From positions 310,001 to 374,000 of the forward strand of contig QPGO01000017.1 of assembly GCA_008632985.1 (NCBI GenBank): DNA of 64,000 nt. Reading direction: 5' to 3'. Source of the DNA: Psammoneis japonica (taxonomy: Eukaryota). The notes under the pieces are model-generated. The model was given only the letters and a program-made list of their open reading frames with translations. It searched no databases and had not been told where the DNA came from. The translations under genes and the position numbers were made by a program. Shown here piece by piece: positions 1-62,995 of the stretch. Each line of letters begins with the position of its first letter. The stretch's first letter is position 1.

Positions 1-7
1 ATCCACA

Positions 8-1955
8 GAGAAGACAGCAATTGCCCAGTGTTCTCAGCACTCTTCCTCAAGCAAGATGACACCAAGATTCTGCAAGCAAGACACACTTCCAACTCAGATT
101 GTTGAAACATGAAATCAAGTCACTCTGACAGGTGCTTGCACTTGTCTCTTGGTGCCAGAGAAGCTGGGGAGCTCTGACTTTCAACTGGGCTGCATTCTGT
201 GTGTCCTTCAACTGCCAACTGAAGCAGCTTTTGCTGACAGGTGCAATCAAAGGAAAGGTGGTGTGTGCACAATGAATGGATCCTTCAAAGATTCTTGAGC
301 AACAGCAGCAACTCCCTTCCCTTGGCCACCACACTCACAGATGCAAAAGGGGGAGGACCCAAACTCCAAGACAAAAGGTCAACCCAGCACCAGCACTGCA
401 CTGGGGAGAACTTGATGGCATTTTTGGTGCATTGCATCATCCAACCTTTCTGTGCCAATGTTGCCAGATCCAGAAAAGAAAACAGCAAACCTGGGATGCA
501 ATTGTTGTGTGACCCTCCAGGCATCATGATTTCAACAACCCCGCACAAAGAAGCCACACCCTCATCTTGCCAATTCAAACGTTGAACCGGCAAGTCAATG
601 TTGCCAAAAAGAAATCCTGTCAAGCTTCCTGTGTTGCTTGAAACACTTGCCTTGGTGGTCTGTGTGATGGCTGTGGGTTGTGGAAGGCATCAATGTAAAC
701 TGGTGAAGACTTGTGCGACAACATGCACATGCCAACGCCAAACAACAAATCATGCAATCCAAATGATTCACTCCAAAAAGTGAGATGAAATGACAAAGGC
801 AAGAAATTGGTTGATGGCAAAACTGGTCTTGCAATGAGTTGCCCAGCAGTGAGCCACGTCAAAAGTCAAGTGTCTTTTCTCCAACTTGCTGGGGGGGGGG
901 CTTGTGATCTCTGTTTTCTGGGTCTTCTGTGCTGCAGCTCCAACATCAATTGGTGTCATCTGAGCCACTCACCAGCTCATGTTGTCCCTTGAAAGTTCAA
1001 AGGACACAGAGGCAAAAAGAGGCTCTGTTGCATGAGGAACCCTTGGAAGTGCAGCAACAACTCAATGTCAAGATGGATTTTCTGGCAAAGGCATGCCAGA
1101 AATCACCAAATGTGGTGCTGAATGTGGGGCTTTGAATGCTCTGAACAAGAAAAGCACAGCACATTGGCCTTCAAGGTGCAGCTCTGAAGCATCTTAGGGC
1201 CAGTGTGCTGAAAATTCTGTGTGTGGCTGCAGGGTGCTGCTGCACCAACACAGGCAAATTTTCAAACAAGTTGAGCATGAGGGAAAGGTGCAACTGCACT
1301 GCAAACTTGGTCATTCATTGGGATGTTGAAGACAAATGCATTCATTGCCCAGTGCATGAGTTGCAGAGCTTGCACATGGAGCTCTGCAGGCCCATGTCAC
1401 ACAAAATCCCACCACCTGGCTGGGGGCTGGAGTGTGTGCGCAACACTGCAGACATGTTTGGAGAGATGAGGTGCACAGGACTCAGATGGCTGCCAGCCAC
1501 CAGATCTCATTCAGCAATTGCAGAACATTGCAAGAGACACACAGAGATGTTGAACATGTGTTGCTGACTCACCCACCACTCAGAACCTGTGCTTGCAGAG
1601 CAGCACTGTTGGACAATGCAGGAGGAGGTTTTGATTGAAGAGGAAGAAGGGGAGAGTGTGCATGCTCATCAGCACAAGAACCAGCATGCCGCCCATCTTC
1701 ACCATCTCATGAGACAGCATTCCAGATCCTTGGAGCTGGTCCAAGCCACAGATGTTGACTTCAACTGACAATGGCTCAAACAAGCCACATTTGCAGATGA
1801 GCACAAAGGCTGCACTTGGCCAAAATGCGGGTTGGCTGGCAAGCCAACTGTGTGACTGCATGTTGCCAATCTGCCCCAAACAACCAATCGCTCACAGCAT
1901 TGTGGTTGTGCATTTGCTTTGACACTCTGCACCCATCCATGATTGTCAGGACTGT
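8..1955 (+). repeat. Diverged direct repeat, copy A (paralogous to 4860-6605)
   Basis: Collinear blocks: 8-290 ~ 4860-5200; 507-575 ~ 5208-5275; 952-1640 ~ 5302-5995; 1645-1955 ~ 6280-6605. Shared strings include gcaagcaagacacacttccaact and gcattgtggttgtgcatttgctttga. Confidence 0.85.
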
Positions 1956-2399
1956 CAGGCAAGACGAGCCAAGAGGGATTGAAGAATTGAACATTGAGAA
2001 TGTTTTCATTCACCAGCTTTGCATGCCTGTTGTTCATCGTGATGTTTGCCCCATTCACCAGCAATTGTGTCTTCTCTTGCTTGCATTGCCTGACTTAGAT
2101 GGCAGGATGACAAGTGAACATTTGCACCCCGGGGCAGCAAAGCACCCTGCAGCCAATCACCGGGCAGGGTGCCAGACATCACAAAGATGTCAAGCACACA
2201 CATTGGCATCAATGCGCACTTGGCTCCCACCACCCGCCACTGCCTGTTGAGATGATGTGGCACTGACAACTGACAAACACTCATAAAATGAAAGCCACAA
2301 AACTGCTTTTTGTGAACAAGTGCTGTTGTGTCAAATGCAGGACCAACATGAAGTTCAGCAAGGGAGTGATCAAAGCCCTGATGAGGGAAGACTTGATGA

Positions 2400-2600
2400 T
2401 GACAATTTTGCAGAGATGGAGCACATCTTTGGGATGAACAAGCAACAAAGAAACAAAAATTGTTGGCTCCAGCAGCAGATGAAATGGGGCTGCAACAATC
2501 ATGTCAAAATGCTCTGCAACACCAATGAATTCCAGAACTGGCACCACATGAAGGGAGAGACATTCAACGCAAATTGTTCAAGTCAATTGCAGACACATCA
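2400..2600 (+). mobile_element. Degenerate PIF/Harbinger-like transposase N-terminal fragment
   Basis: Reads MKW..NHVKMLCNTNEFQNWHHMKGETFNA, resembling the W..HV..L....F..(R)YRM...F motif recalled for Harbinger transposase N-termini once CA/TG changes are reverted. The DDE core was not seen. Confidence 0.45.
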
Positions 2601-4859
2601 GCTGGAACATTTTTTTAAACAGCATGTTGTGGATTGGGCAACCAGTGACATGCAATGCAACCACTGCTGGTGTGCAGATTGCTCTCAGATGAACTCACTG
2701 TCCAATTGACACGACAATCATTTTAGATGATCTGCACTTGATTTTGACTTTGAGCATTGTTGTGCAGGTGATGCATCTGTGCAGCACACATTCTGATGGA
2801 CTGGTGGAACTGAATCTGCCAGTCTCCAACATGTGTGCTGCGACTGGCATTGCATCTGAGCCATGCTTTCTTGTCTTGAATCTCTTTGAGCTGGCAATTC
2901 AAATCTGTCCACTTCTCTTTTTTGTTTTCGATTTCTTTTTCCATCTCACAGATTTCTGGAAATGCAAACTTGTGCAAGTCAGGTTCATCACGCAAGCCAA
3001 CAGATTTGGTGTCAGGAGGCTTCGGGCAAAACACCACTCTCCTTCACCTTCTGGACCTTCAGAAACTTTTGGCACCACTGTTTGGCCTCTTTCTTGCCAT
3101 TGCTGCACTCAGCAGATGCATCTTTCCACAATTTCCTTTTGTGGGATGTTGGCACAATGATGTTGTCATTGACTTGATTGGAACAAGACTCCACAGCCAT
3201 GCCCAACTTGATTGCATCATTCTTGGAGCTCACAGACTCATTGAAGTCACTCCGTGGCTGCTCCATCCTTGGATGCCTTGTTTGATGCCTTTTGGGCTTC
3301 TTGGCATTGCCACCATTGTTGGCACTCGACTCAGGCGGCAATTTGCCTTTCAAGAATGAAACGAATGCTCAATTTGAGAGCACATGAATTCAGACAGAAC
3401 AATTGTGCTCACCAGCTCACCAGCCAGTTTCTCAAAGATGCCAGGAAACTGAAAAACAAACTTGTGAAAATGCAACAAGCAGTTGTTGTCATCAACAAAG
3501 TCAGCAAAAGGCTTTGTTGACTCCCTGCCTGCTTCATCATCTGGATCTTAAACCTCTCCATGCTTCACAGATGGCTTCCAGTTTTTGAGTGCATGCTTGT
3601 GTTCCTTCACACATGAAGCTGCCTTTGAGCTCAACAATCTTCTTGCATGGAGATTGTTTTGCAAGCTTTCAACCCTTTGGAATGTTGCAACAGGAAGCAA
3701 AGGCACACAGGCTGTCCTCAAGAAAGATGAGGTCCTGTGTTGCAACCCCCTTGACAGACACCAATTTGATGCAAGCCACTGATGCAGAGCTTTAGATTTT
3801 TTGGTGGGGGTTTCTTGATGGGGTTGGCAGCTGCTGCCAACACTTCAACATCTCCTGATGTGGCACCAGGTTGCCGCATTGTCTGCAAAGAGCAGATGAT
3901 GCAACCAAGGTGTTTTTTCAGCTGCAAACTCTGTTTGACTTGTTGAACATGCCAAGGACAAAAATTTGCTCCAATGGCACTCACCAAGAACTTTCAAAAG
4001 GTGTGTTTCAACTCTTGTGAAGAAATGCACTCAACAAGAGGTGGATGAACTCTGTGAAAATGAAGTGCCAGCACATGCCAGGCAAACTTGCTTGTGAAAA
4101 TGAAGTGCCAGTTTGTGCTGTTGTGATGCAACAACTCTGTTGTTCACAGATGGTCAAGACACATTGGCTGCTCCTCTAGGGTGCACCAGCCAAGCTGCTG
4201 CCAACACAAGGCTTGAGTGGCAGGAGGTGATGCCTTTTAGCTCTTTTTGACTGGCTTGAGTTGTCACACACACTGCTGCACTTGCACTGCTGCCTTTGGC
4301 AAGCATCGCAGCCCAGTGCAGTGCCAACACCTCAACCATTGGCACTGCTGCATCAACTGACAAGAAGTGCTGCATGATGAGCAGCTTGTGGGAGGTCTGG
4401 TTGACTTGCTGGAAAGCTCTGGCTTTTGCTCCATTGTTTGCACAAATTTGCTGCACCAACAGGAGGCCTGTCTCTGTCAGAACCACTGCCCAGAAGCACA
4501 GCTCCAGAAGCAAAAGGGGTGCACTGCCTGCAAAATGTGGCTTCAGAAGGAACCAGGAATTTCTCCTGTCTCACAACCTCAGGCAAGGTTGTTGTCATGG
4601 TTGACAACAGTGCAGGCACCATGATTCATTGTGGCTCAGCAACTGTTTCTTGTTTCTGAGGCCATTGTTGTGGATCAAAGCCCACTTGAAGACAGTCTCT
4701 TGGGTTTTCCTTCAGACTGGGGAGAAATGCAGTTGCATCAAATTGCTTGAGACCTTCCTGCCAGACATTCAACAAAGACTGAACTTTCAAGGCTTTGCAA
4801 GTGTTTGGTCAAAGCCAAAGTGCTTTGTCAGTCAGCATTGACAAGACTTCTAATCTTGT

Positions 4860-6605
4860 GAGAAGGCAGCAATTGTCAAGTGTTCTCAGCGCTCCTTTTC
4901 AAGCAACAACTCAGCACTCCTTTTCAAGCAAGAAAGAGAGAAAAGCAACTCAATTGCTGCACAAGCAGCACGCCATGATTTTGCAAGCAAGACACACTTC
5001 CAACTTAAATTGTTAAAACAAGAAATCAGGTTGCACTCTGCTGACTTGTGGCTGCTTGCACTTGTCTCCCACCAGAGGAGCTGAAAACATTTGACTTCAA
5101 TGCAGCTGCATTTTGTGTGACCTTCAATCATGACCAACTGAAGCAGCTGTTGCTGACAGGTGCAAGTGTGGGAAAGGTGCTGTGTGCACAATGGACAGTT
5201 CTCTCAAGGTGTGACCCTCAAGACATTGTCATTTCAATGACCCTGTGCAAAAGAGCCACATCCTCATCTTGCCCCCCCCCTCCCCCTCCCTCTTCAATGA
5301 GTGTCATCTGAGCCACCAGCTGCTGTCTTCCCTTGAGAGTTTAAAGGACACAGAGACAAGAAGAGATTCCATGGCATGAGGGAAGCTGTTGGAGAAATGC
5401 AACAACTCAATGTGTCAAGATGGTTTTTCTGGCAAAAGTGTGCAGGAAATCACCAAATGCAGGGCTGAATGTGTGGTGCTTTGAATGCTCAGAGCACAAG
5501 AGCAACATGGCTTGTCATCTGCCTTCAAGGTGCAGCTCTCAAGCATCTGGGGGCCAAAATGCTGAAGCTCATGTGAGGTGTGCCAACACAGGCAGACACA
5601 TTGTCAAAAAAGTTGAGCATGAGAATGAGGTGCAAATGTGCTGCAAACTTGGTCATGCACTTGGATGTTGAAGAAGACAAATGCACTCATCATCCAGTGC
5701 ATGAGCTGCAGAACTTTGACATGAAATTCTGTGGGCCCATGTGACACAGAGCCCTGCCTGGCCAGGGCTGGAGCAGTGTGCCAGACATGCAGGGACAGAG
5801 CAAGGAAGGAGCAGGTGTGCAGGAAGGATGCAGATGTGGCTGCCAGCTGCGAGGGGCTTCATTCAGCAATTGTTGTGGAACATTGCAAGGGACATGCAGA
5901 GATGTTGAAAATGTTTTGCTGACTCACCCACCTCTCAGAACCTGTGCTTGCAGAGAATTGTTGTCTGGATGATGCTGGGAGGCAGGATTTTTGACAGGAT
6001 TTGAACAAGATTTTAGTTTGTCACACACAATTGTGTGTGCTCTTGGTTCCACGCGCGCCGCGCAATGCAGTTTGCTTTCAAGCCGCTCGGCTCACAAGAA
6101 CAATGACAGCAGCACCGACATCATGACGCCAGTCTTTCGGCTCCTGCAATGGTCTCTGCATGGAGATTCATCTGCCATTTAGACAGCAGCAAGGAGTTGT
6201 TGTTTTCTTCCACCCAGTCATCTTCAATTTCTGTCAATTTCTGTCAATTTTGACAATTTTGACTCAAGAAGAGGAAAAGAAGGAGAGAGTGTGTTCTTGT
6301 GAACCCGCCCCATCAGGGAGCATTGACCAGCATGCCGCTCGTGTCTCTGCCATCTCATGAGATGGCACCCCAGATCCTTGGAACTGGCGCAAGAAGCTCC
6401 AGATGTTGATTTCATGTGACAATGGTTCAAAGCACACAGCATCTGCAGCACAAAGGCTGAACTTGGCGAAAATGCGGGTTGGCTGGAAAGCCAGCTGTGT
6501 GGCCACCTGTGTTGCTGAGCCTTCCAAGCCCCATACAGCAGATCTCTTTCCGCATTGTGGTTGTGCATTTGCTTTGATGCTCTGCACCCATCCATGATTG
6601 TTGGG
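4860..6605 (+). repeat. Diverged direct repeat, copy B (paralogous to 8-1955)
   Basis: Same collinear blocks as copy A; differences are frequently CA<->TG, TA<->CA/TG and CG<->CA/TG. Confidence 0.85.
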
Positions 6606-6869
6606 TTAAGGCCTGACTGAACCCAGATGATAGAGCAGGCGGCAGCTCTGATGAGGAGTCTGGCGGGCGCGTGCACGCTGTGCATGACACTTGCCCGACG
6701 CGACTACAAGTGCAGTATTTATTTGGGAGGTTGCGGGTTGCGGACCTCTCCAGAGCACACAGCACTCTGAAAAGACAGAAGACGGAAGGGGAAGAAGCGT
6801 CGGCATTAAGCAACTGGAGGTATTGCATTCCTCAAATACTAGTATGACTGTTTTTCTATTCCCAAGTCA

Positions 6870-7321
6870 GCTTCTTCACAGAACAACGGAAGCAAAATGG
6901 TTCCCACCGCAGACCGACGAATTTGAATCAAGGTGAGCGCGATAGTTGCTGAAAAATGATCCTTTGTTTTCATCATTGCAATGCTGACACTGGAGATACT
7001 CCCCCGAAATTGCCTTTGTCAAGTCTGGATGCACTCGAACGAGAAGAAGAGGCGTATGCAATGCGAATGCGTCGGATTGCACAAGCTTCTGCCCCCGACC
7101 CCATTGGTTTGGCATCCGCGAATAATGCCGGTGGATCACGTGGAGCAAATCAAGATGGTATCGACTCCACGGAACATTCGGTCGACGCTGCTACTCCCGT
7201 GAGTCTCCGACGGTTGTTATGGCATCAACGGCGTATGCAGAGCAATGAAAGTTCAGATGACGCAGACATTTCGAGCGAGACTGCCAGCAGAAGCCAACAA
7301 GAGTCACGTCGCTCGAGTTGA
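6870..7321 (+). CDS. Possible 3' exon(s) of an unknown gene abutting the mutated tract
   Basis: Open frame DTPPKLPLSSLDALEREEEAYAMRMRR...RRSS* preceded by a plausible gtgagc...ggag intron (6933-6995). No intact start identified. Confidence 0.3.
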
Positions 7322-8011
7322 GAACTTGAATAGTGTAGGCGTACTGTGTGCTTTGACTCGATTAATTTTTCTCAATTCCCAAGGCCTATGTACATACAAG
7401 TGCGGCCATCTCAATCGGTTCTTTTACTGTACTGTATGAGGAAGATCTGACTTGTTCTGAAGCAAACTGAAAACATTCTGTTTCTAATGTTGTACTGGCT
7501 GGAAGTTCAAAACATCCGACAAAGAAACAACTTTACAATGATAGACTGGTTATTTCTATAGTGTCGAATCTTTGGCTGACCGGAAATCCCAAGAAGAAAC
7601 ATTGTCTCTAGAGAGTATATTCATTGAAAAGGCCGTCCACTAAAGGCCGGATTTTGTTGGGAGGTACACGTAGTCCTTCCTAGCTCTTTTTTACTGCTAG
7701 TTGAAGCATTGCTAATTGAACGAGAAACATTTCACCAGTGCCGACTTTTTTAATTCCTGCAACATGAGATCAAAAATGGTAGGATTGTGCACAGCGAACG
7801 CAAGTAGGAACTAGGGAGGAATGCTCTAAAAAGAGCTTGTTCCGGTAGACTACAGAACGCAGTCTTAAGTCCCTACCACGAAAGCATCCCCGAGGTTCAG
7901 CTGTATCTGAAGCACCAACCAATTTACAGAGGTAAATACTGTGGTGCATTCACGAGGTAAGACTGAGCAACAGTGAGAAAGACGTTTCATCGTGATGTTT
8001 CATTATAGAGT

Positions 8012-8452
8012 TTAAGCACTGAGCAAGCAAGCGCCACCGGCTTCCTTAATCTTCTTTTCAGCCAACTTGGAGAAGTATTTGGCTTTGACAATAACAGGAA
8101 CATTGATTTGTCCATTTCCCAAAAGCTTGAAGTATCCGAGCGAAGTCAAGTCAATAACCGGAGCCTTTCCTCCTCCGTTCTTGGCAGCTTCGTAGACACC
8201 ATCACCGGCGGCATTGAATAGCTTGTCGATATTGAGAGTCGGGGTGTATTTTCTGTTTTTCAAGACATGAAAGTGGCGCATACCGACCTTACCAAAGTAA
8301 CCAGGGTGGTATTTATCCATGAGGATGCGGTGGTGGTGCTGTCCACCTGCATTACCGCGACCACCGGGATGCTTGCGGTGCTTCCCGACACGGCCATGAC
8401 CGCAGGAGACGTGGCCTCTCTTGTTCCTTGACTTGTGCAAACGGGTCGGCAT
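8012..8452 (-). CDS. RPL27A: 60S ribosomal protein L27a (uL15)
   Basis: [43 protein letters not shown]...[15 protein letters not shown]; 146 aa. Probable 5'-UTR intron at ~8464-8704 (gtaagc...tttcag). Confidence 0.97.
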
Positions 8453-9287
8453 TATGAAATAGTCTGAAAGGAACAACACAAATTGAAAACAACAAAGTGA
8501 GCACATTGCAAAAGAAACAACATGATCGTTACGGACAGACCGCGCAACATGAGACACCGCATGTATCGGCAGCCCTTTTGTCAATCATCCGTTTTTTCTG
8601 CAAGACGACGACTCTGAAGAGAGCATACATCAAAAGAGAGTCTCAACTACGATATTGTGTAAACTTGCGCCATTCTGCCGTCGCTTGACATCGCCATGGC
8701 TTACCTACCGCTAAACAGACAATACGGAGCTCACTGCTCACCGGTCACCGGCGTCGCGCTCACAAAACCAAGTAACCGGTAGCCGGTATGACGCTCCTTC
8801 CATCGTCCGTCGTCCCATGTCTTCCGTCCGTCGTCCAATCCACCGCTCCAACGCGTGTCAAAATACGTCAGAGAGGTCATCGCGGATTTGAAATCTATGT
8901 CCATTGTACGAAATTAATACAGGGATTCTATATTGGACAAAAAATAACCGCCATTCTAGTCGCGAGATGACTACGACTCCTTGTACGAAGAGTCACACAC
9001 GTTGAATTCTACGCAACCAACGGTATTGAAACATTCAAATCTATAGCTATGATGAAAATAGATGTGAGTCGAGGAGTTCGCGCCATGAGTCGCCTCCTAG
9101 TATTCGGAATTCGTAGAACGTACGTGGTTGCAAAGAAAGCTTTGGAAAAAGCTGCGTCCTCGGCGGCTGCAAGCTGTCATCGGCCGCAAACCCCAGCGCA
9201 AAGTTATCGCAAACAAAGAGCCTTCTTGTCGTCAACCAACACGGCAACACGCATCGAGCGACCACAAGTACCTTATTGACAACAACC

Positions 9288-10615
9288 ATGACCACGGCAA
9301 AGCTAGAACCAAAGATGGAGTCGACGGAGAAAGAGTCTTCTCTCTCCAAAGACATTCATCCCGATTGCCCGATCTTCCTACGGAGTGAGTCGAGCGATTC
9401 GATCCTGCTCGTGCTTTGTGTGTATCGGTTCGTGCCACACGCAATGTTGTGTGATCTAACCATGGCGTTTCTCCTTGTTATTATTGTTGCTCTACAGAGG
9501 CATACCACATGATTGACACGTGTGACCCCAGTATTGCGTGCTGGAGCGAAGACGGCAAAACGTTCATCGTGAAAGACACGAGCGTGTTTGAGAAAAAGAT
9601 CATCCCTCAGTTTTTCAAGCACTCCAAGTTTTCCTCCTTTGTAAGGCAACTCAACTTTTATTCCTTCCGCAAGATCAAGTATGCGGACACAATCAGGATT
9701 GATGCCAAGCTGGAGGCGGAGACGGCGAACTTTTGGAGGTTTCATCACGAGAAGTTTCAGCGTGACAAACCGGAGCTCTTGATTGGAATCAAGCGATCCA
9801 GTGGTCCTCAAAAGCAAGGAGCGACCACTGCGGCTGTTGCGACGCACAAGCAAGAAGACGTGGGGTCGCTCAAGACTGAGGTGTCAACCCTCAAGGAGAG
9901 AATTGAGCTTATGAACAAAAATATCGATGCGCTTACCACACTCGTCTCCAAGGTATCGCTCAAGCAGGAGCAGAGCGAGAAGGCAGAGCAAGTAGAGGCA
10001 GGAAACAAGCGCAAGAAGGTTGATACTGTTGTTGACAGCCAACTTCTACCGGTTCCAGACGATATCGGTAGCATTCACTTGGATGGGGACTTTGCTACCA
10101 TGTCGCCACCACATGGGATGAAGCGAGCAACCTCGGATACAAGCTCTACGTCTCAGATTAGCGACGACGCTTTTGTGGATGGGCTTTACACGGCGTTTGA
10201 AAATGATGTTGACATGACTTTGCTAGATGAAGATTCATCTGCTATCGAACCTGTCGTCTCCAATACAGCCTTGACAGATAGCAACCGGCCTGACCCAGAA
10301 CTGATGAACAAACTCTCCGACGCTCTCACGCTCGTACCAAAAGACATTCAAGTCCTGATTGTTGATCGATTAGTCACAGCAATCACAAGCTCGGATTCTC
10401 TGGCCAAGTCCCTGGAGACCGCATCGACTACGGATTCCTCAAGCACGTCTAACGTCGTGGAGAACGCTGACAGCGCGGAACAAACGGCACTCCCCGCTCA
10501 AGTGTCCTTGCCTGTGGCGGCTGCGGCGCTCGCTGCCATGATCTCGAGCTGCAGCTCGAATCTCAAGGACAAGGCCCATCTCCAAAAGAGTTTGCCCATC
10601 ATTCCGATTCACTAG
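9288..10615 (+). CDS. HSF: Heat shock transcription factor (HSF DNA-binding domain + coiled coil); intron 9385-9497
   Basis: Spliced PIFLRK-AYHMIDTCDPSIACWSEDGKTFIVKD...PQFFKHSKFSSFVRQLNFYSFRK, followed by a heptad region. Confidence 0.93.
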
Positions 10616-10880
10616 GCAATCATTTCAGCAATATATGCGCGCAAGTACAGCAAATCGAGCAAATTTTTTGTATTACACGTTGTGTATGGATGGGGACGAC
10701 CATGCCGCGTATCGAGCTTTTGGTGTTGGCACAATGATCTTACGGCATCCTTGGCCTCGATCGAGGATGTCGAAAGCGGTCTGTATGGTTAGGATAACTT
10801 TTATTTTACGTAAGCAGTTTTAGATACAATTTGATTCATTTCTACCAGTATTGCTTTATGCTTTATTATTACAGCTCTAG

Positions 10881-12464
10881 CTAGAGCGAGAAGCGACAAA
10901 GCTCTTGACATGAACCCTGTGCACACGATGTCACCTTTTCGTGACACCAACACAAGAGAGCTTGGTCTGCAGCCACATCAAAGTCAATCACCGCAAGCCT
11001 TTCGGACTCTCCAAGACAACGTTTCATTTGCGACTGAAGTCGTTTCATTGCTGGGCTGTTATTCAGCTTGCTTTGCACGCCTGTAAAGCATACTGTGGAC
11101 GTGTCTTTGTCGTCACACCAGCCGGTACTCTGACTTATCGCCTGGCTGGCACTCTCTGTCACCAAGAGACGTTTCCAGTGTTGTCCCGGTTCCGGCTCTA
11201 TGCTTTCAATCTGCAATCTTAAAATGTCTGCTATTGCGGACCGATCCAGAGGTGCAAACGGGATCACTGCATCAAACGACTATTACAGAAAGTTAGTAAG
11301 CATGGGCGTGTTGTGTACAATTAACAAAAGTGACGTCTGAAAACTCACCACTGTTGTGCCTTCCTTCTCGTATTGTCCAAAGAACGCGTTAACTTCGCGC
11401 TCAACAGATCCAAAATCTTGTGCAACAACGTCATTGCCAATATTGGTAGTAAAGATGAAAACAACCTTGTCTAGATCAAAGTTGGCCGTGCTTGGAGCTC
11501 TTGCCAACTGGCATAGCCACTGAACGAGAACCGGTGGCATCTTTTCAACGTGACGAACAATAATCACAGCTCCATTGCCTCTTTGTCTCTGTACATGATG
11601 GCCAATACTCTTTGAAATAGCATCAATAGTACCGCGTTGCTTGTCTGACTAAAGTCCCCGCCTTGCAGAACGAGGACGCGGTCGTTAATTTCGGCCGAGT
11701 CACCTTCATGGCATTGTTGAAATAGTAGAGAACTACTTGTCGTGCCATTTCCGTTTTACCACCGGAACCAGCAAAGAGAAGCATCAAGGAGAGTGACTGC
11801 TGTTGTCGGTGTTGTCCCGAGCATTTGTCATAGCAGAAGTAACCATTGACACCGCCTTTGGTTGCTGCACCATTCGTTCAGACAACCACTCCTCTATGAA
11901 ATCTGAAGATGACGGAATCATTAGAGGGCAAATATTTCGTCGCCGATCTATCCATCCCGCTTGCCACTGCCGAATAGTATCACTCCATCCCAAAACATCT
12001 TCTCGCAATCCAATCATGCACCACGACAAGGCGTACGACAAGGCATATGCAAAAGATTTTGTTGAAGATACGATCCCTTCTACCTCAGCAAGTATGAATT
12101 CAGACCATATTTGAGGTGTACCTTGTGGGTTTGGGGGAGGCGCCGGTGGCCCATACTGAGCAATCAAACCGGCGACAACCACGACAAGCATCGTCACGAA
12201 CCAGACATGAGTAGATTTGCTCCTTTGGGTAGTAGGATACGAAGCCTCTGAATAGATTTCATGATCCATGGGCGACTGCACCAAGTAAATCGAGCCAATG
12301 TTACTTCCATCATATGTAGTGAGGCGAGAGCTTTCAATCGCACCTTGCTGGAAAGAATTCAGACTTGCTGCAGCAGTACGCATCGTGCCACGAGATGCAT
12401 CAGTACTTTGCTCATCTTCGTCATCTTCTGCCAAATCAACCTCATCAACATGAAATCGTACCAT
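10881..12464 (-). CDS. Membrane-anchored torsin/ClpB-D2-like AAA+ fold protein with degenerate Walker motifs (several frameshifts, one intron near 11280-11350)
   Basis: Acidic N-terminus; TM segment WFVTMLVVVVAGLIAQY; LSERMVQQPKAV; (P)LMLLFAGSGGKTEMARQV; AVIIVRHVEKMPP; KVVFIFTTNIG; FDAVIPFAPL. Confidence 0.6.
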
Positions 12465-15868: not shown

Positions 15869-17201
15869 TCATTCTGTCTTTGCCCGTGCAGTGGGTTTCG
15901 TATCTTCTTCCTCTGTTGGTCGCTTTGTGCCAGCCAACGTGGACACTGAAGCAACCGAGGCTTGATGCGTCGCAGGAGGTCTGAGTGTCTGCAGACTGTA
16001 AGCTGCGACCTGTGACAACGAATGCATCATGTCAGGCATGCGGGTTGATGTATGCGCATGAGCCATGCTGGTATGAGTATGAGCCATGCCGGCCACATTT
16101 CCGTTGGCAGCCAACATTTGCTGAACTAAAACCGCGAGCCTGTCGTAGTCGGCTGCGAGATTATTGATTCGCCGATCGTACTCCGCAGCCATATTAGTGA
16201 TGCATTCCTTGAGCTTGGCTTGTTCTGCACGAAGCGACTCAACTTCGTCTTTCGACTGCTGGTCCGCTTTGGTGGCCCGTTTAATGCTCGCAAGCAAATC
16301 AGGGCGGTCCTTTTGGAACTTCTCGTGGTAGAATCGTACGTAACAGGCAGTTCTCGCGTCAAAATCCGCTGTGAGAATCGGCTCGGCTTTGAGCTTTCGA
16401 AAACCTGTGATTCGTAAGATGCAACGTGCAAGAGTAAGTGAACCATGTGAAACGATTTGCACCAATTCAAAAAGTAGTATTCTAGATCCTACAGCAAAAA
16501 ACTCACCGTAAAAGTTGAGCTGTCTCGCAAAAGAGGAAAAGTTTGAATGCTTGAAATACTGAGGAAGAACGCAGCCAGAAAACTTTTCTACGTTCTTGAC
16601 AACGAAGTTGTCGCCCGTTGTCGACCAAGTTGCAATCTCTGGATCGCACCGGTCAATCATGTGATAAGTTTCTGCGCAAAAAGAAAAATGAGGAAAAGCA
16701 TGTTAGACTAGAGATTTAACGAATTTGCTTTATATTCCCAGCCGAGCTGAACCCGAAGTGTGCCATGAGATCCTCAACGCACATTCCTTGACCTTCGCAC
16801 GACACTGGTACACCCAAACGTAGAACACGGAATCCGGCTGCACACGAGCCAACAGAAACGAACGATGACAACCTTCGCTAGGCGGCACTTTACTTACTGG
16901 TGAGGAACATTGGGAGTTGGTGCTGCTTTGGACAGGCCTTGGCTTTTCTTCCTTTCTCATTTGTAGTAGAGGTGCTGGGAAGGCCATTTCCAGAACCAGA
17001 TGAGGAAGGTTGCAGAGAAGACGTCGTGCCCAAAGAACACAGAGCATCACACGTCACTTGATGCTCAATTCTTTCTGCCTGCTCCGTCATGGCACTTGGA
17101 ATGTTTGCAGGAGCTTGAGACATAATTGGAGGTTCTTTAGCTTTGCCTTCGTCCTCGGGTGGCATGGGGTCTCTTCGTTTCGCTTTCAAATGGGCCAACA
17201 T
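15869..17201 (-). CDS. HSF: Second heat shock transcription factor; introns ~16674-16896 and ~16406-16507
   Basis: LPMFLT-KTYHMIDRCDPEIATWSTTGDNFVVKN...[23 protein letters not shown]...FYHEKFQKDRPDLLASIKR, then a coiled coil. Confidence 0.92.
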
Positions 17202-18967: not shown

Positions 18968-19082
18968 NNNNNNNNNNNNNNNNNNNNNNNNNNNNNNNNN
19001 NNNNNNNNNNNNNNNNNNNNNNNNNNNNNNNNNNNNNNNNNNNNNNNNNNNNNNNNNNNNNNNNNNNNNNNNNNNNNNNNNN
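18968..19082. other. Assembly gap (N run)
   Basis: 115 consecutive n characters. Confidence 1.
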
Positions 19083-25579: not shown

Positions 25580-28500
25580 ATGAGAGTCGGTGTGTGTGCA
25601 GCACTAGTTTTCGCCTCCTTTGCCTGCGCACAAACAAATTCCGTAGACGAAAAAGGAGTAATCGGCGAACGAACACGTAAAGTGGACTCTCATCAGGCGT
25701 CACTTTTTAGTCTTGAGGGCGGGAATCTGGAAGAAGTGAAGGTAACAGAAAGTCACATCCTCGAAGATTTGACAAGTAAATCTGGACAGTCCGGTGAGGG
25801 TGAGACAAGAGACATAGTTACGTCTCTTGACCGAGACCTTGCGCGACGAGATCTTGGCGATCGTTATCGTCCTCGAGCAGAAGGAAAGCAGCGGAAACGG
25901 ATTCGACATCACATTCTAGGCGGAAGTGGAATCGACGCCCCTCCGGAATGCTCCTGTCCGTACCCTGGAAGCTCAAGGAAGGGTGGCAGGGCAACAAGTG
26001 TGAGAAAGAAAGGAAAAAGCAGTGGCGCAGAGGAAAGGGCAAGAAAAGCGGCCACAGAAACCGAGCTCTTCAACGATTTGATGAATTGAAGTCCATCTTC
26101 TCTCGAAACAGACAGCGCGAATCTCCAAGGGAGCGGAATGAACCTGGTAGATCGGACCTTTATGACAAGTATGAAGATGAAGAAGATAGGAAAGCTTATC
26201 CCATATGCAAGAATGTCATATGGCTCTGTCCTGGAGAGAAACCAGATGGTGGCGCCTTTTTGCGTTGCCCTTCCTCTAAAAGAATCAACCGGAAAGGCAG
26301 AAAACAAGGTAGCGGAAAAAGCGTATTGTACCCAAGCCCTTTACCCGTTGTGAGGTATCTTCCCAAGAACCATCCACAATGTCAATGTCCGGATGATTTT
26401 GGACCTCAACCGAATAAACGTCGACCAGTTTACCCAGCTCCAGCCCCGTACAGGTATGAGAAGGACAGAGGACAAGGGAAAGAAAGACGATACCATGCGA
26501 AGGGCGGAAAGAGATCCCACGGGAAATATCCAAAAAAGGGGAAAAAAGGCTATAGTAAGTCGAAGAGAAAGAAAGGATTCATGGGAAAAGGTTTCATCAA
26601 ACATAAACCATCACGGTGCCCAACCCCGCCCCCCAAAACATTTTCACCTACTGAGACACCGACTGAAACGCCGACTGAGTTTCCGACGGCAATGCCACCC
26701 TTACCACCTGGAGTTCCAACGCAAAGTCCAGCACCTCCATCACAGAGCCCGGCACCAAGTATGAGTCCCACGGAAATCCCACCATTGCCTCCGGTTTCGC
26801 CGCCCACACCTGCCCCGAGCTCCAGTCCCGTCCCCAGCAAATCACCAAGTGCTTCACCAAGTGCAAGTCCAGCACCAAGCGATTCTCCCAGTTCAGAGCC
26901 GAGCGTCAGTTTAGCTCCGTCAGAATCAATAATTTGCGAAGTTGAAGTGAGTACTGATACAGCAGCCAAAATTTATTTATCCTTCAAGCTACAACTCACG
27001 AACTCAAACTCGATCTCCAATTTCTTTTGCAAATTGTCAACAGGTCGAAATAACTTGCACGACCGGCGAAGGCGACCTCGAGCAAAACTGCACCGACATT
27101 ACAAGTCCAGATTCGCAGTGCGTAGGATACTCGAACTTGAAGTTCATTTTTGAACCACGCTCCTGCGCAGAAGCAACTAACTCACAAGGTCAGACCAGCG
27201 TTTGTGAGGAAGAAAACGGTGGTATCCCTGGAATGAATGACACAGTTCAAGTTGTCTGCATTGAGAAAGATACGAATAACACCCTTTTCAATGATCAGGT
27301 TGCAAAAGACGACATGGTCCAGTTCTCCGACGTTCCCAGCTCCGTTGAATGTGCCATTAGGAATGCCGCGAACCAGACCATACTTTATCAAAGGGTGACC
27401 TTCATGACTGACGAACCTTTCAACTTGCTCCTAAATGATGAATATGGAAGTCTGACTCTCAAGGGCTGCACAGATGAAAGTCAACCACCCCGACAGTGTT
27501 TGATCGACGTTGACTATTTGATTACAGTCGAAAACGTGGGAAGCGAGAACATGACGATAAAGCAAGCAGACCTGATACTGGACGACATGGAAACCATTGA
27601 TTTGCGCCCTGAGCTAGATACGGAACTGGCACCAGACCAAATCACAAATACCACAGAGACAGTGACTATCGACATTTGCGTTGAGGCCAACTACACAGCC
27701 AAGGCTGAGGTGGAAGCTAATCCGCCGTTCGGTCCGAATACCTGTGAAGACGAAGATGATTATGTCATTGAAACAGATCCCTTACCGACACCATCCCCGA
27801 CACCAGTGCCGTCACAGACGCCAAGCCAGTCTCCTACAGCGATACCACCCCTGCCCCCTCCACCACCCTCCGCATCACCCTCCCGTAGCCCGGCTCCAAG
27901 TGACTATCCAAGTGCAGTACCCAGCTCAAGCCCGGTGCCAAGTCAATCGCCGAGCGCCGAGCCAAGCGAAAGTCCAGCACCAAGCAATACGCCAAGCAAC
28001 AAGCCAAGTGCCAGTCCCGCCCCGAGTTCGCCCCCCAGTAACGCTCCGAGCTCGAGTCCGGCACCGACGACTCATGCTAGTAGTCCACCTAGCTCAAGTC
28101 CGGCTCCAAGTGATTCGCCAAGTGCAGCTCCTAGTTCAAGCCCAGCACCGAGTGATGCACCAAGCAACGTGCCAAGCGCGAGTCCTGCCCCCAGCAAAGC
28201 TCCAAGTAACATGCCAAGCGAAAGTCCTGCTCCTAGCAATGAGCCAAGCACCGAGCCAAGTGCAAGTCCTGCCCCGAGTTCGCCCCCCAGTAACGCTCCG
28301 AGCTCGAGTCCGGCACCGACGACTCATGCTAGTAGTCCCCCAAGCTCTAGTCCAGCGCCGAGCAATTCGCCCAGTGCAGCCCCTAGTTCAAGCCCAGCAC
28401 CAAGTGATTCCCCCAGTTCGGAGCCGAGCGTCAGTTTAGCTCCGTCGGAATCTATTGAATGTGACGTCGAGGTAAGTTTTGATATCCCAAACGAACCCAT

Positions 28501-31500
28501 CCTTGACGATGAAGCTTGTAACATAAACCTTTTTCTCCAATTTCGTTTGAAAATTAACAACAGGTCGAAATAACCTGCACGACGGGCGAAGGCGACCTCG
28601 AGCAAAACTGCACCGACATTACAAGTCCGGAATCGCAGGTAGCAGGTTTTTCGAACTTAACTTTCATCTACGACCCACGTTCTTGCGCGGAAGCAACGAA
28701 CTCACAAAGTCAGACTAGCATTTGCGAGGAAGATAACGGTGGTATCCCTGGAAACAATGACACAGTTCAAGTTGTCTGCACCGATGAAGATACAGACAAT
28801 ACTCTTTTTAACGATCAGGTTGACAAAGGCGACACGGTCGAACTCTCCAACGTTCCTAGCTCCGTTGAATGTACCATCAGAAATGCCACGAATCAGACCA
28901 TAGTTTATCAAAGGGTGACCTTCATGACTGATGAACCCTTCAACTTGCTTCTCAACGATGAATATGGGAGTCTGACGCTCAAGGGTGGCACGGATGCGGA
29001 TCAACCACCCCGAGAGTGTTTGATCGACGTTGACTACTTGATAACAGTCAAAAACGTGGGAACTGATAACATGACGATAGAGCAAGCAGACCTGATACTG
29101 GACGACATGGAAACCATTGATTTGCGCCCTGAGCTAGATACGGAACTGGCACCAGACCAAACCACTGATACCACAAAGACAGTGACTATCGATATTTGCG
29201 TTGAGGCCAACTATACAGCCAAGGCTGAGGTGGAAGCTAACCCGCCGTTCGGTCCAAATACCTGTGAAGACGAGGATGATTACGTCATTGAAACAGATCC
29301 GTTGCCCACACCACGCCCGACGCCGGCACCGTCACAGACGCCGAGCCTGACTCCAAGTGAATCGCCAAGTGCCAGTCCAGCCCCTAGTTCATCACCGAGT
29401 AACGCTCCGAGCACAAGTCCAGAACCTACAGTCCATGCGAGTAGTCCACCTAGCTCAAGTCCGGCTCCGAGTGATTCGCCAAGTGCAGCTCCTAGTTCAA
29501 GCCCAGCACCGAGTGATGCACCAAGCAACGTGCCAAGCGCGAGTCCTGCCCCCAGCAAAGAGCCAAGCGCCGAGCCAAGTGCCAGTCCAGCCCCAAGCAA
29601 TGCGCCAAGCACCGAGCCAAGTGAGAGTCCCGCCCCGAGTTCGGCACCCAGTAATGCTCCGAGCTCGAGTCCAGCACCGACGACTCATGGTAGTAGTCCA
29701 CCTAGCTCAAGTCCGGCTCCAAGTGAATCGCCAAGTGCAGCTCCTAGTTCAAGCCCAGCACCGAGTGATGCACCAAGCAACGTGCCAAGCGCGAGTCCTG
29801 CCCCCAGCAAAGAGCCAAGCGCCGAGCCAAGTGCCAGTCCAGCTCCAAGCAATGCGCCAAGTACCGAGCCAAGTACCAGTCCCGCCCCGAGTTCGGCACC
29901 CAGTAATGCTCCGAGCTCGAGTCCGGCACCGACGACTCATGGTAGTAGTCCACCTAGCTCAAGTCCGGCTCCAAGTGAATCGCCAAGTGCAGCTCCTAGT
30001 TCAAGCCCAGCACCGAGTGATGCACCAAGCAACGTGCCAAGCGCGAGTCCTGCCCCAGCAAAGAGCCAAGCGCCGAGCCAAGTGCCAGTCCAGCTCCAAG
30101 CAATGCGCCAAGTACCGAGCCAAGTACCAGTCCCGCCCCGAGTTCGGCACCCAGTAACGCCCCGAGCTCGAGTCCGGCACCGACAACTCATGGTAGTAGT
30201 CCACCTAGCTCGAGTCCGGCTCCGAGTGATTCTCCAAGTGCAGCTCCCGCGCCATCACAGGCCCCAAGCAGTTCTCCAACAGAAATGCCTTTGATCCCCC
30301 CTGCTATACCCACTCCCCCACCTTCTGTTAGCCCGGCTCCTAGTGACCACCCTAGCGCAGCACCCAGCTCAAGCCCGGTGCCAAGTCAAGAGCCAAGCGC
30401 CGAGCCAAGTGCCAGTCCAGCTCCAAGCAATGCGCCAAGCACCGAGCCAAGTACCAGTCCCGCCCCGAGTTCGGCACCCAGTAACGCTCCGAGCTCGAGT
30501 CCGGCACCGACGACTCATGGTAGTAGTCCACCTAGCTCAAGTCCGGCTCCGAGTGATTCGCCAAGTGCAGCTCCTAGTTCAAGCCCAGCCCCAAGTGATG
30601 CACCAAGCAACGTGCCAAGCGCGAGTCCTGTCCCCAGCAAAGAGCCAAGCGCCGAGCCAAGTGCCAGTCCAGCTCCAAGCAATGCGCCAAGCACCGAGCC
30701 AAGTACCAGTCCCGCCCCGAGTTCGGCACCCAGTAACGCTCCGAGCTCGAGTCCGGCACCGACGACTCATGGTAGTAGTCCACCTAGCTCAAGTCCGGCT
30801 CCGAGTGATTCGCCAAGTGCAGCTCCTAGTTCAAGCCCAGCACCGAGTGATGCACCAAGCAACGTGCCAAGCGCGAGTCCTGCCCCCAGCAAAGAGCCGA
30901 GCGCCGAGCCAAGTGCCAGTCCAGCTCCAAGCAATGCGCCAAGCACCGAGCCAAGTACCAGTCCCGCCCCGAGTTCGGCACCCAGTAATGCTCCGAGCTC
31001 GAGTCCGGCACCGACGACTCATGGTAGTAGTCCACCTAGCTCAAGTCCGGCTCCAAGTGAATCGCCAAGTGCAGCTCCTAGTTCAAGCCCAGCACCGAGT
31101 GATGCACCAAGCAACGTGCCAAGCGCGAGTCCTGCCCCCAGCAAAGAGCCAAGCGCCGAGCCAAGTGCCAGTCCAGCTCCAAGCAATGCGCCAAGTACCG
31201 AGCCAAGTACCAGTCCCGCCCCGAGTTCGGCACCCAGTAACGCCCCGAGCTCGAGTCCGGCACCGACAACTCATGGTAGTAGTCCACCTAGCTCGAGTCC
31301 GGCTCCGAGTGATTCTCCAAGTGCAGCTCCTAGTTTAAGCGCAGCACCAAGTGATTCTCCCAGTTCGGAGCCGAGCGTCAGTTTAGCTCCGTCGGAATCT
31401 ATTGAATGCGACGTCGAGGTAAGTTTTGATATCCCAAACGAACCCATCCTTGACGATGAAGCTTGTAACATAAACCTTTTTCTCCAATTTCGTTTGAAAA

Positions 31501-60904: not shown

Positions 60905-62670
60905 CGGAGTTTCAATTCAAGCCATCGTCAGCTGATGCATGCGCTCGTTGCTTGCTTTGGTTTTTTTTTTTGTGGAGGCATCCAGTCTGTGCCACGTCCG
61001 TGGTTCATGTCTTCTGGCTTCTGATCGTGTTGAAGAATCCACAGCCGCACACCAACCGCATGCATCAGCATGAAAAGTGGGACGGCTCTTTGTTGAGGTC
61101 ACCTTGCTGGTCCAACAAGATGTGCACAGCCGCCATTTTTTGTTTGGCTTTGAGCTTTGAGCACGTTGGCGATGACTCACACGCTCATCTGGAGGAGCTG
61201 CTTTGAAAACTCTGTGCTGTGTGCCAACTGCAGTCTGACAATTTGCGACAATTAGCAGGACAATGCAGAGTGCAATGCTGTGCATGCACACACTGTGACA
61301 AAACAAGCTGCAACTTTGGCTCGCCACAGCTGTGCTGCGCAGCAATGCTGCTGTGCTGGGGGAACAAAAGGCAAATGACCATGGCTTGAACTTTTGACTC
61401 ACAACCAAAGAATGATTGCCACAATTGATGCCATTAAAGTGACAGATGATTTGAAGGTCAAAAGTTTTGTCCGGTCTTCACCACCATGGAGCTCAACTGA
61501 AGTTGTTTCAGCCACCTGCACATCGTGAGACACAAATCCTCAGCTTTGCCCTGAGGACACATCAAAGTTGTGGCTTCTGTGGAACTTCCAAAGTCACATG
61601 TTCAACACACTGGATGTTTCAAATCCCTGGCCACACTCTGCTTTGCAAACATTGCCAAAAAGGGCTTTTGAGAAGGGGAGAAATGTTTGTTGACATCACA
61701 CAGAGGATCACGGAAGAGGGGAGGACAAAAGAACAGCTCAAAGAGTTTGATGCAGCAAAAAGAGCTGCCCCAAGCTAAAACAACACTGATGAGCAACAAA
61801 GATGCATGCCCACAAATGCGCTGGCCGGAGCTCCATGGGGCAAGCAAGCTTCTCTGCACACCCATGTGACCCCACTCCCACTGATTTCAGCTGACCTGTG
61901 GCTCTGGCAGAGCTCACAAAATGCCATGAAAACACAACAGAACATTCTGTCTTTGTCCAATGGCAAAGTGTCAACAGCTGTGTTCACTGCCAGCCACAGG
62001 AAAGTGAGAACACTGAGACAAATTTGGCGTGCCAACATTTGTGCAGGAAATCAACATGATGTTGCTGCTCTCTCTTTCATCATGGATGACAGCACATCAT
62101 GTCCTGGTCTTGCCACAAAATGCAGCATGTGTCATCTCTCTCAACTCACAATTGTGAATGGGAATGTCAGCCATTGCCAGTGAGAAAAAGTGATGAAAGC
62201 TTGTTGGCGGTGGGAAAGAAGAGCCGGTGCAAAAGAAGCCAAGAGACGAGGCACAAAACAATGTGCTTTTTCAGAGAGAGGCAGAATGTCTTGATGTGGT
62301 CTTTCAACAGACTGCACAGTTGCTGAGAGCTTCAAATGCATTGTTGGAAGCTGTTGCTGGTCACGGGTGTTGCCACGTTCTCTTGGCAGATTTTGGGGTG
62401 TGAAAGTTTTGTGAGTTGCTGAAGTGCCTTTGCAAAGTCAAAACCCAAAACTGTTGCAGCAGCTCACATGTGGCAGCCAGAAGCACTGGGGTGAGCATTG
62501 GTTGCTTCTCAACACGGCCAAGGTTTTGTGCAGCTGCCATGAAAAAATCACGGCAGCAGGTGATCAAATCGTGGCATGCTTTGTGTGGTTGTTCTGAGAA
62601 CTGACATTGTTGAATGAAAACTGCTCTCTTTGAATTGACTGCTTTTGCAGGGAAGAAACCACTGGAGAGT
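60905..62670. other. Second TpA-depleted, partly CpG-depleted hypermutated tract
   Basis: Only three TpA seen in ~1.77 kb (ttag ~61253, ttaa ~61435, ctaa ~61776), and none between ~61780 and 62670. Confidence 0.9.
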
Positions 62671-62995
62671 GTAGAGGAACTGCCACTGGGGGCCTCAGCA
62701 AGATTGTTGGGAGGTCCTCGACAACAACCGAAGAGGGGGTGGTCACCGGTCATCATAGTCCCGCAAAAATTGCAAATTTTCAAAACCATGTAGAGATTTA
62801 CACATCGTCGTAGTAGGACACATCAATCTATTTATGCCCAAAAACACACGATACTGTACTTCATGACATCTATCCCGAATTGCAATCGGAGATTTTGGGT
62901 CGGGAGGCGTTGTTAAAGACATCACACAACCAAACAACTCAGAGAACAGCGCTGCGGGTCAGTACTCCGTCAAACATTTTTCTAATCTAGAAAGT

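Follow-up and report, generated by a model that had tools for sequence, protein, structure and literature searches.

Two tracts of DNA in the window (the whole 64-kb stretch of Psammoneis japonica analyzed here) consist, with a probability that we put near 0.7, of genuine diatom nuclear DNA: old, diverged repeats that two local transition processes have rewritten. The first would be a TpA-directed A:T->G:C hypermutation, changing TA to TG, or to CA when it acts on the other strand, near completion here and of the same kind as the de novo process of Bigelowiella natans. The second would turn CpG into TG or CA with no clear flank rule, as expected from 5-methylcytosine deamination in CG-methylated repeats.

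The signature is a matter of simple dinucleotide counts. Positions 1-6530 hold only 16 TA (observed/expected, O/E, 0.04) and 47 CG (O/E 0.13) together with 761 CA (O/E 1.81) and 742 TG (O/E 1.88), at a GC content of 0.478; over the rest of the window the O/E values are 0.57 for TA, 0.96 for CG, 1.16 for CA and 1.17 for TG, with a GC content of 0.490. The first-pass annotation had counted about 16 TpA and few CpG, with an excess of CpA and TpG, in the first 6.5 kb and had described both dinucleotides as ordinary in the genes past ~6.6 kb; these counts bear it out on both points. Genic densities predict 249 TA and 385 CG in positions 1-6530 (binomial P 7.6e-86 and 1.5e-109), an expectation that, like the model background used below, comes from the window's own genic DNA and not from ancestors of these repeats. 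The depletion is uniform: in each of the six successive 1-kb bins of 1-6000, TA O/E is 0.01-0.05 and CA and TG O/E each lie at 1.64-2.05; CpG O/E within the cores is 0.05-0.19, matched by the gain of CA and TG. The longest run free of TA reaches 901 bases in the tracts versus 284 bases outside them, a figure that includes an N gap. Deficits in 1-6530 are restricted to CG and TA: TC (O/E 0.94) and CC (O/E 0.82) offer nothing to an APOBEC-type C->T change in TpC or CpC, which we rejected.

Tract 1 has a core at 1..6020, where both dinucleotides are almost gone (TA 15 versus 230 expected, p=5.7e-79; CG 31 versus 355, p=1.7e-113), and a right edge at 6021..6600, where TpA is lost (2 versus 22, p=4.5e-8) and CpG only halved (17 versus 34). 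Its right limit falls at ~6530-6600, short of 6734, where the next gene's spliced transcript contig begins, and its left limit lies beyond the window, whose start falls inside the tract. A second tract, missing from the first-pass annotation, spans ~60906-62740; its part 60991-62740 contains 4 TA versus 67 expected and 29 CG versus 103 expected, and three of these four residual TA are YTAR (Y, pyrimidine; R, purine). Tract 2 is built in the same way, with a left edge at 60906..61260 where TpA is lost (1 versus 13.6 expected, p=1.5e-5) and CpG stays close to normal (14 versus 20.9, p=0.07), and a core at 61261..62740 with the signature of tract 1 (TA 3 versus 56.5, p=3e-21; CG 18 versus 87, p=4e-20). 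No blastn match joins tract 2 to tract 1, so that the sequences are unrelated. A low-TA stretch at 46-48 kb was considered as a further tract and rejected: its CpG is normal, its TA flanks are unbiased, and it is an ordinary coding region.

Several lines of sequence evidence point to a mutational origin of the pattern: (i), TA, CG, CA and TG together make up 24.06% of dinucleotides in the tracts versus 23.95% in the genic background; (ii), the GC content predicted from the background once lost CG is subtracted and lost TA added (0.4771) is close to that observed (0.4790); (iii), CA<->TG is the commonest class of adjacent double difference between the two repeat copies of tract 1 described below (23 of 77), the next double-transition class reaching 4; and (iv), among the 14 multi-copy differences listed inside the tract, other copies carry CG (5) or TA (2) where the window has CA or TG, with one of the remaining rows in the reverse direction and six unrelated. 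Polarity is judged here from these few read-table rows and from composition; direct evidence for A->G or T->C change at TpA is sparse, coming from the two listed sites that are TA in other copies and CA or TG here, and from two CTAG<->CTGG allele differences. In the mechanism proposed by the first-pass annotation, the draining of both self-complementary YpR steps into CA/TG by transitions is supported by the conserved sum, the GC content, the prevalence of CA<->TG among double differences and the other copies; its description as an undescribed process falls to the precedent of B. natans.

These observations also weigh on the idea that the repeats arrived already poor in TA and CG, as they might from a virus or element whose dinucleotides are under selection. 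At least two unrelated sequences show the pattern, other copies have CG or TA at 7 of the 14 listed sites, the CA<->TG discordance between copies points to change after they split, and the mutated domain stops ~70 bases inside one of them. An O/E of 0.04 also goes far beyond any dinucleotide suppression known to us. We thus regard native composition as very improbable, even if CpG and UpA are suppressed in many RNA viruses (PMC3829696, from its accessible text) and domain searches assign the repeats to no source.

The tract DNA itself is repetitive, and a transposon or foreign origin is only putative. Copy A (8..1946, + strand) is a direct repeat of copy B (4860..6601, + strand), the two being joined by five collinear blastn pieces of 74-85% identity, and the mutated domain stops short of the last ~70 bases of copy B; the copies agree at 1003 of 1224 aligned bases, a divergence that is real, as are the indels. 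Related sequence occurs on 1237 contigs, one piece at ~1000-fold depth. The edge of tract 1 also contains a short, CpG-rich repeat of very high copy number (5992..6236), delineated by contig depth (summed to ~74,000 in the bin 6001-6400 versus ~60 for single-copy DNA) and by loose contig ends clustered at 5992, 6216 and 6236; it retains just two TpA, both YTAR. Pfam searches of 22 tract ORFs gave no family above the cut-off and two sub-threshold matches, and those of 12 six-frame read-throughs (X at stops) a single sub-threshold match to DUF6510. The ORF at 3012-3368 (- strand) had no protein relatives in a word-index homology search, the ORF at 2287-2709 (+ strand) had none in an exhaustive HMMER search, Rfam returned no match over 1-7000, high-copy repeat included, and an inverted-repeat scan found no convincing terminal repeats. 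Three metagenome loci sharing a 21-base pattern of the high-copy piece have ordinary composition and no wider similarity, and were set aside as chance matches.

An assembly or polishing artefact is ruled out because contigs built from the reads of a public run (X1) give the same tract sequence, matching 1-2353 exactly and 3263-6018 with 2 differences, at a depth of 63-65 versus 58.6 over the flanking genes, that is, at single-copy depth; X1 is flagged as possible source data of the assembly and does not count as an independent sample. Another conceivable artefact is systematic miscalling of modified bases, namely 5mC in CG and some modification of A or T in TA; the fact that the library type of X1 is not on record and that X1 may be the assembly's own data gives it some room. 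Nevertheless, the tract is recovered in exact-word contigs at depth ~60, copies A and B truly differ in sequence and by indels, and a second run (X2), cDNA-like with GT..AG splicing over genes, yields a contig with a match to part of the tract family (2801-3336), cDNA carrying no DNA base modifications; miscalling is therefore the least probable of the alternatives that we weighed. X2 leaves most tract bins uncovered and supports no conclusion on expression. Inside the tract, the assembly departs from the single-copy read contigs at two sites (4178 and 4253), each a CTAG<->CTGG difference.

The loss of TpA follows a flank rule. Among the 20 residual TA of both tracts, 17 are YTAR and 3 RTAR, with no YTAY or RTAY, although YTAR makes up 19% of background TA (p=3.5e-10) and the supply of new TA from CA and TG is even over the four flank classes (465-481 each). 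With the strands pooled, residual TA are followed by A 24 times, by G 13 times, by C twice and by T once, versus 825, 1032, 1199 and 1152 in the background. The products are skewed as well: CA outnumbers TG by 308 to 173 in R..R flanks, and TG outnumbers CA by 303 to 173 in Y..Y flanks, so that a model with no flank rule is rejected (p=3.7e-6 and 3.2e-7) and a T-A-Y model fits (p=0.18 and 0.22). Together, the YTAR excess among survivors and the flank-dependent CA:TG ratio argue that the changed A sits in T-A-Y, equal to a changed T in R-T-A, a rule that is new here. Under such a rule RTAR would become RCAR, YTAY would become YTGY, RTAY could go either way, and YTAR, which reads T-A-R on both strands, would be the slow class that survives. 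The CA<->TG sites discordant between copies A and B are not confined to R..Y flanks (Y..Y 7, R..Y 7, R..R 6), so that most may stem from CpG, or the rule may be a preference rather than absolute; copy A has CA and copy B TG at 18 of these sites versus 5 of the opposite kind, a skew that weighs against the main reading.

CpG loss behaves differently. What CpG remains in the cores is unbiased as to context (p=0.24), with no sign of a T-C-G rule of the kind known for amphioxus ADAT2; with the edges included a weak signal appears (p=0.007), but CCGC and GCGC then hold 20 of the 76 residual CpG. At the edges, 60906-61260 and 6021-6600, TA is lost and much CpG kept. The TA and CG footprints are thus partly uncoupled, and the claim of the first-pass annotation that TpA loss is distinct from CpG loss gains from both the edges and the strict flank rule of the former, with none for the latter. 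The same facts make it unlikely that one bifunctional ADAT2-like deaminase or complex acts on A in TpA and on C or 5mC in CpG across one silenced domain, all the more so as CpG decay requires no special enzyme where CG is methylated. Such an enzyme would account for the common cores and the common sharp outer limits of the two losses, and it has a model in amphioxus ADAT2, which deaminates both A and C in DNA, its C motif TCG being a CpG context (PMC10354150, accessible text). Methylation-driven decay, as in vertebrates and plants, shares with the tracts a CpG deficit, a gain of CA/TG, the lack of a clear flank preference, and the 5 listed sites where other copies are CG and the window TG or CA. 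It cannot remove TpA, and CG methylation of these tracts is only putative; diatoms do methylate transposons at CG via DNMT5a, transposon methylation being known from P. tricornutum (PMC9998398, accessible text).

For the TpA process we hypothesize a TadA/ADAT-like zinc deaminase that deaminates adenine in DNA; silenced chromatin may be the signal that marks its targets, and the process may act as genome defence. Amphioxus ADAT2 can deaminate A and C in DNA, but its preference there for GAA (A) and TCG (C), not TA (PMC10354150), counts against this reading. Among known enzymes, eukaryotic ADAT2/3 has tRNA substrates with mostly a purine after A34, and ADAR, a metazoan enzyme with an RNA substrate, prefers G as 3' neighbor, the opposite of the T-A-Y rule here. 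The hyper-editing by ADAR of dsRNA from repeats and viruses nevertheless resembles the tracts in its clusters of A->G changes and its 5' U preference (Mettrop et al., 2026, accessible text). In bacterial TadA, the core editing motif, UACG in the accessible text of PMC11472039, has the A preceded by T(U) and is a T-A-Y context, as inferred here at footprint level, where the enzyme is putative. Alternatively, oxidation or another modification of T in R-T-A (of the 5hmU or 5fU type) could lead to pairing with G and hence to T->C; sequence alone cannot separate A->G from T->C on the opposite strand, and R-T-A mirrors T-A-Y. Dinoflagellates have 5-hydroxymethyluracil, preferentially at TpA and TpC, but we know of no thymine-modifying system in diatoms. 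The sole study of this signature favors, in its accessible text, adenine deamination (Mettrop et al., 2026), and we consider the thymine route quite unlikely, a shade more so than the bifunctional deaminase.

Hypermutation at TpA is not unprecedented, although the first-pass annotation knew of no described system with this signature: in B. natans, integrated viral DNA is hypermutated de novo from TpA to TpG/CpA (Mettrop et al., bioRxiv 10.64898/2026.01.13.699255, 2026). According to the accessible text of that preprint, the targets are integrated viral DNA (NCLDV and virophage) and transposon-like DNA. Two viral inserts gathered 231 de novo mutations, of which 230 are A->G or T->C, every one of these at TpA, at ~6e-7 per site per generation; the genome also contains 124 TpA-poor, CpA+TpG-rich clusters, and an ADAT2-type adenine deaminase is proposed (Mettrop et al., 2026). 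The tracts described here share an apparent change of TpA to TpG/CpA on both strands, the confinement to discrete regions beside normally evolving genes and the several-kb TpA-poor, CpA+TpG-rich footprint, but there are a number of differences: (i), the host is a diatom (Stramenopila) and not a chlorarachniophyte rhizarian; (ii), the loss is near saturation (O/E 0.04), versus a Rho of 0.45 in an active NCLDV insert of B. natans; (iii), the targets are repeats that defy classification, no viral or transposon domain having been detected in them; (iv), CpG is also lost and a T-A-Y rule is found, the accessible preprint text being silent on CpG, flanking bases and diatoms; and (v), a de novo rate was measured in B. 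natans, where here the footprint alone is read from the sequence. A literature search in a limited collection returned no account of such TpA loss or hypermutation in diatoms. The comparison with fungal RIP is one of form: both make local, near-saturating transitions in repeats beside intact genes, but RIP changes CpA to TpA and enriches TpA, the opposite of the TpA (O/E 0.04) and CpA/TpG (1.8-1.9) values found here, and was rejected as an explanation.

It is tempting to go further, and we do so tentatively: diatoms and chlorarachniophytes could share an old, SAR-wide DNA-editing defence in which a T-A-Y TadA-like deaminase is drawn to silenced DNA of repeat or foreign origin and, beside CG methylation, drives both palindromic YpR steps into CA/TG. 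It would amount to an AT->GC equivalent of RIP, reaching a few hundred bases beyond the methylated core and still active at the slow YTAR sites, a point that the CTAG<->CTGG differences at 4178 and 4253 would fit.

Targeted DNA hypermutation is established as genome defence for fungal RIP and the vertebrate APOBECs. For the TpA-directed A:T->G:C version there is so far one report, the 2026 preprint on one rhizarian alga; its end-state footprint in a diatom would mean that more than one species has the process, and would place it in a group that ranks among the main primary producers of the ocean. The TpA process is set apart from methylation-driven CpG decay by the T-A-Y rule and by edges that have lost TA and kept CpG, and these also predict a substrate preference of the enzyme, which can be checked on the published de novo mutations.

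Two segments of this diatom DNA have lost nearly all TpA together with much of their CpG. The host is placed among diatoms by a 950-residue ABC-transporter ORF, whose best relatives, up to 64% identical, lie in diatom-named records. In tract 1 (1-6530), a dinucleotide count gives 16 TpA (observed/expected, O/E, 0.04) and 47 CpG (O/E 0.13) with CpA and TpG in excess (O/E 1.81 and 1.88; GC 0.478), whereas the other 57 kb of the window have O/E values of 0.57 for TpA, 0.96 for CpG, 1.16 for CpA and 1.17 for TpG (GC 0.490). With the densities of the window's own genic part as expectation, tract 1 should hold 249 TpA and 385 CpG (binomial P 7.6e-86 and 1.5e-109); its longest TA-free run is 901 bases. 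The contrast drawn by the first-pass annotation, between an eroded repeat and ordinary DNA beyond it, is therefore real, and extreme. The tract ends between ~6530 and 6607, and the window start falls inside it. Tract 2 (~60906-62740), which the annotation did not list, is similarly erased: from 60991 to 62740 it has 4 TpA where 67 would be expected, and 29 CpG where 103 would be. It shares no sequence similarity with tract 1. Both occupy intergenic space amid expressed genes, tract 2 lying between a minus-strand TFIIE-beta-like gene and the next plus-strand gene. A further candidate, the TpA-poor region at 46-48 kb, was rejected: its CpG is normal, its TpA show no flank bias, and it is ordinary coding DNA.

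The sequence itself appears sound. The public sequencing run X1, which is possibly the source of the assembly (its library type is unrecorded) and hence no independent sample, contains 97% of sampled words from 1-8000, and its read contigs match 1-2353 exactly and 3263-6018 apart from two differences, at a depth of 63-65 over tract 1 versus 58.6 over neighbouring genes. Since these contigs reproduce the tract at single-copy depth, an assembly or polishing artefact is excluded. A second run from the same sample, X2, yields GT..AG-spliced contigs over genes and so looks like cDNA; one X2 contig, from a related repeat copy, matches 2801-3336, which speaks weakly against a miscall of modified bases, an origin we regard as scarcely credible. 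Other X2 contigs, spanning 6734-7662, 9286-10781 and 10845-11618, omit 6928-7018, 9385-9497 (GT..AG) and 11280-11348; these gaps fit cDNA-like behaviour and support introns in the genes adjoining tract 1. The assembly has one gap of 115 N, at 18968-19082.

Could such a composition simply be native to the repeats? Five agreeing lines point instead to mutation, and we consider native composition very improbable. In particular, TA, CG, CA and TG together take nearly the same share of dinucleotides in the tracts (24.06%) as in the background (23.95%), so TA and CG were swapped one-for-one for CA/TG by transitions; when the background GC is raised by the TA loss and lowered by the CG loss, the predicted value is 0.4771, against 0.4790 observed. 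Tract 1 also holds two diverged direct repeats, copy A (8-1946, plus strand) and copy B (4860-6601, plus strand), 74-85% identical. Their alignment (1003/1224 bases identical) contains 77 adjacent double differences where 38.7 are expected under site independence; CA<->TG supplies 23 of them and no other double-transition class more than 4, as expected if ancestral TA or CG had resolved independently to CA or TG. Between 938-1946 and 5286-6601, copy A has CA and copy B TG at 18 discordant sites and the opposite at 5, a skew that may reflect a per-copy strand bias of the process. The 23 sites occur in Y..Y, R..Y and R..R flanks (Y pyrimidine, R purine), so many are probably CpG-derived. In addition, the best-supported rows of the read table, which has 42 further rows, include 14 multi-copy differences in tract 1: at seven the window has CA or TG where other copies have CG (3293, 6051, 6064, 6150, 6161) or TA (3305, 6045), at 6128 the relation is reversed, and the other six show no such relation. 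The constant sum, the GC fit, the CA<->TG excess and the state of other copies largely bear out the mechanism put forward in the first-pass annotation, a localised conversion of TpA to CpA/TpG.

The few surviving TpA reveal a flank preference. Of 20 in both tracts, 17 are YTAR and 3 RTAR, with none in YTAY or RTAY, while YTAR makes up 19% of background TpA (p=3.5e-10). With strands pooled, the base 3' of the A is A 24, G 13, C 2 and T 1 times, compared with A 825, G 1032, C 1199 and T 1152 in the background. Because YTAR is the only class that reads T-A-R on both strands, the simplest rule would be that the mutated A is one in T-A-Y context, equivalent to a mutated T in R-T-A. This rule makes an independent prediction, that RTAR becomes RCAR and YTAY becomes YTGY; CA indeed outnumbers TG in R..R flanks (CA:TG 308:173), TG outnumbers CA in Y..Y (173:303), and the two are about even in R..Y (231:242) and Y..R (238:227). 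With genic DNA as background, which may differ from the repeats' ancestors, a conversion model lacking the flank rule is rejected (p=3.7e-6 and 3.2e-7) and one with T-A-Y agrees with the counts (p=0.18 and 0.22). The four flank classes are equally supplied with new TpA from CA/TG (465-481 each), so supply does not account for the survivors. From background densities, the surviving fraction is ~28% for YTAR (17/~60), ~2% for RTAR plus YTAY (3/~159) and 0/~97 for RTAY, and by our calculation each strand mutates at least ~5 times faster at T-A-Y than at T-A-R. As the fifth line for mutation, the assembly departs from the single-copy X1 contig at just two positions of tract 1 (4178 and 4253), each time by CTAG<->CTGG but in opposite directions, which could represent allelic variation or very recent TpA<->TpG change at slow YTAR sites. 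A route through modified thymine, with T->C at R-T-A, leaves the same sequence trace as A->G on the other strand; we nonetheless think it quite unlikely.

TpA loss and CpG loss are two processes, not one. At one edge of each tract TpA is lost and CpG kept (60906-61260: TA 1 versus 13.6 expected, CG 14 versus 20.9; 6021-6600: TA 2 versus 22, CG 17 versus 34), and the TpA footprint extends past the CpG-depleted core. Residual CpG in the cores, unlike TpA, has no flank bias (p=0.24). Uncoupled edges and differing flank behaviour both count against a single bifunctional deaminase behind the two losses, which we judge unlikely. The CpG loss would be what CG methylation of repeats produces; in the available part of one study, transposon methylation in diatoms goes through DNMT5a, and many diatoms have a RID-related DNMT4 as well (PMC9998398).

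The tracts are repetitive: 1237 related X1 contigs were placed on 1-12000, and a ~245-base piece at 5992-6236, in the right-hand edge of tract 1 and, in keeping with separate processes, CpG-rich yet nearly TA-free, reaches a summed X1 contig depth of ~74,000 versus ~60 for single-copy DNA (~1000x). No Pfam family scored above cut-off in 22 tract ORFs or 12 read-through frames, searches with two tract ORFs (3012-3368, minus strand; 2287-2709, plus strand) gave no protein relatives, tract 1, including the 5992-6236 piece, matches nothing in Rfam, and a scan for terminal inverted repeats showed none that were clear. As TGA is the sole possible stop in TA-free DNA, frames that stay open for 140-165 codons do not speak for coding. 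Elsewhere in the window, two genes for HSF-type DNA-binding proteins lie 5 kb apart (9509-10615, plus strand; 15869-16660, minus strand), in line with the expansion of the HSF family in diatoms. A GC-rich island at 27137-35525 (GC 0.57-0.62 versus 0.48 elsewhere) contains long, partly overlapping ORFs, two with weak DUF7467 matches, and a raised YTAR share among its TpA (0.30-0.43).

We hypothesize, with a probability of about 70%, that a TpA-directed A:T->G:C hypermutation preferring T-A-Y would remove TA from silenced repeat domains, within which methylated CpG would also decay. Fungal RIP is likewise a local, saturating mutation of repeats, but the tracts do not belong to it, their dinucleotide signature being opposite. 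The chemistry could be adenine deamination by a TadA/ADAT-like enzyme, though we hold this to be less likely than not. ADAR prefers a 3' G, the opposite of the T-A-Y rule. As far as the available parts of the sources go, the bacterial TadA editing core, UACG (PMC11472039), matches T-A-Y, whereas the DNA sites of amphioxus ADAT2, GAA and TCG (PMC10354150), do not.

No comparable signature was found described for diatoms in the literature searched; the first-pass annotation was aware of no system with this signature, but a 2026 preprint reports one in a different lineage. According to its available part, two integrated viral regions in Bigelowiella natans mutation-accumulation lines mutate at ~6e-7/site/generation, 230/231 changes being A->G or T->C, each of the 230 on TpA; the genome has 124 clusters of TpA-poor, CpA+TpG-rich 1-kb windows, transposon domains are over-represented in low-TpA genes, and an ADAT2-type adenine deaminase is proposed (10.64898/2026.01.13.699255). 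Tract 1 would qualify as such a cluster six times over and looks like an end-state of the B. natans process. CpG, flanking or trinucleotide context and diatoms are unmentioned in the available preprint text. We propose that the diatom tracts join B. natans-type TpA hypermutation, to which they would add a nearly saturated state, the T-A-Y flank rule and TpA loss that reaches past the CpG-depleted core.
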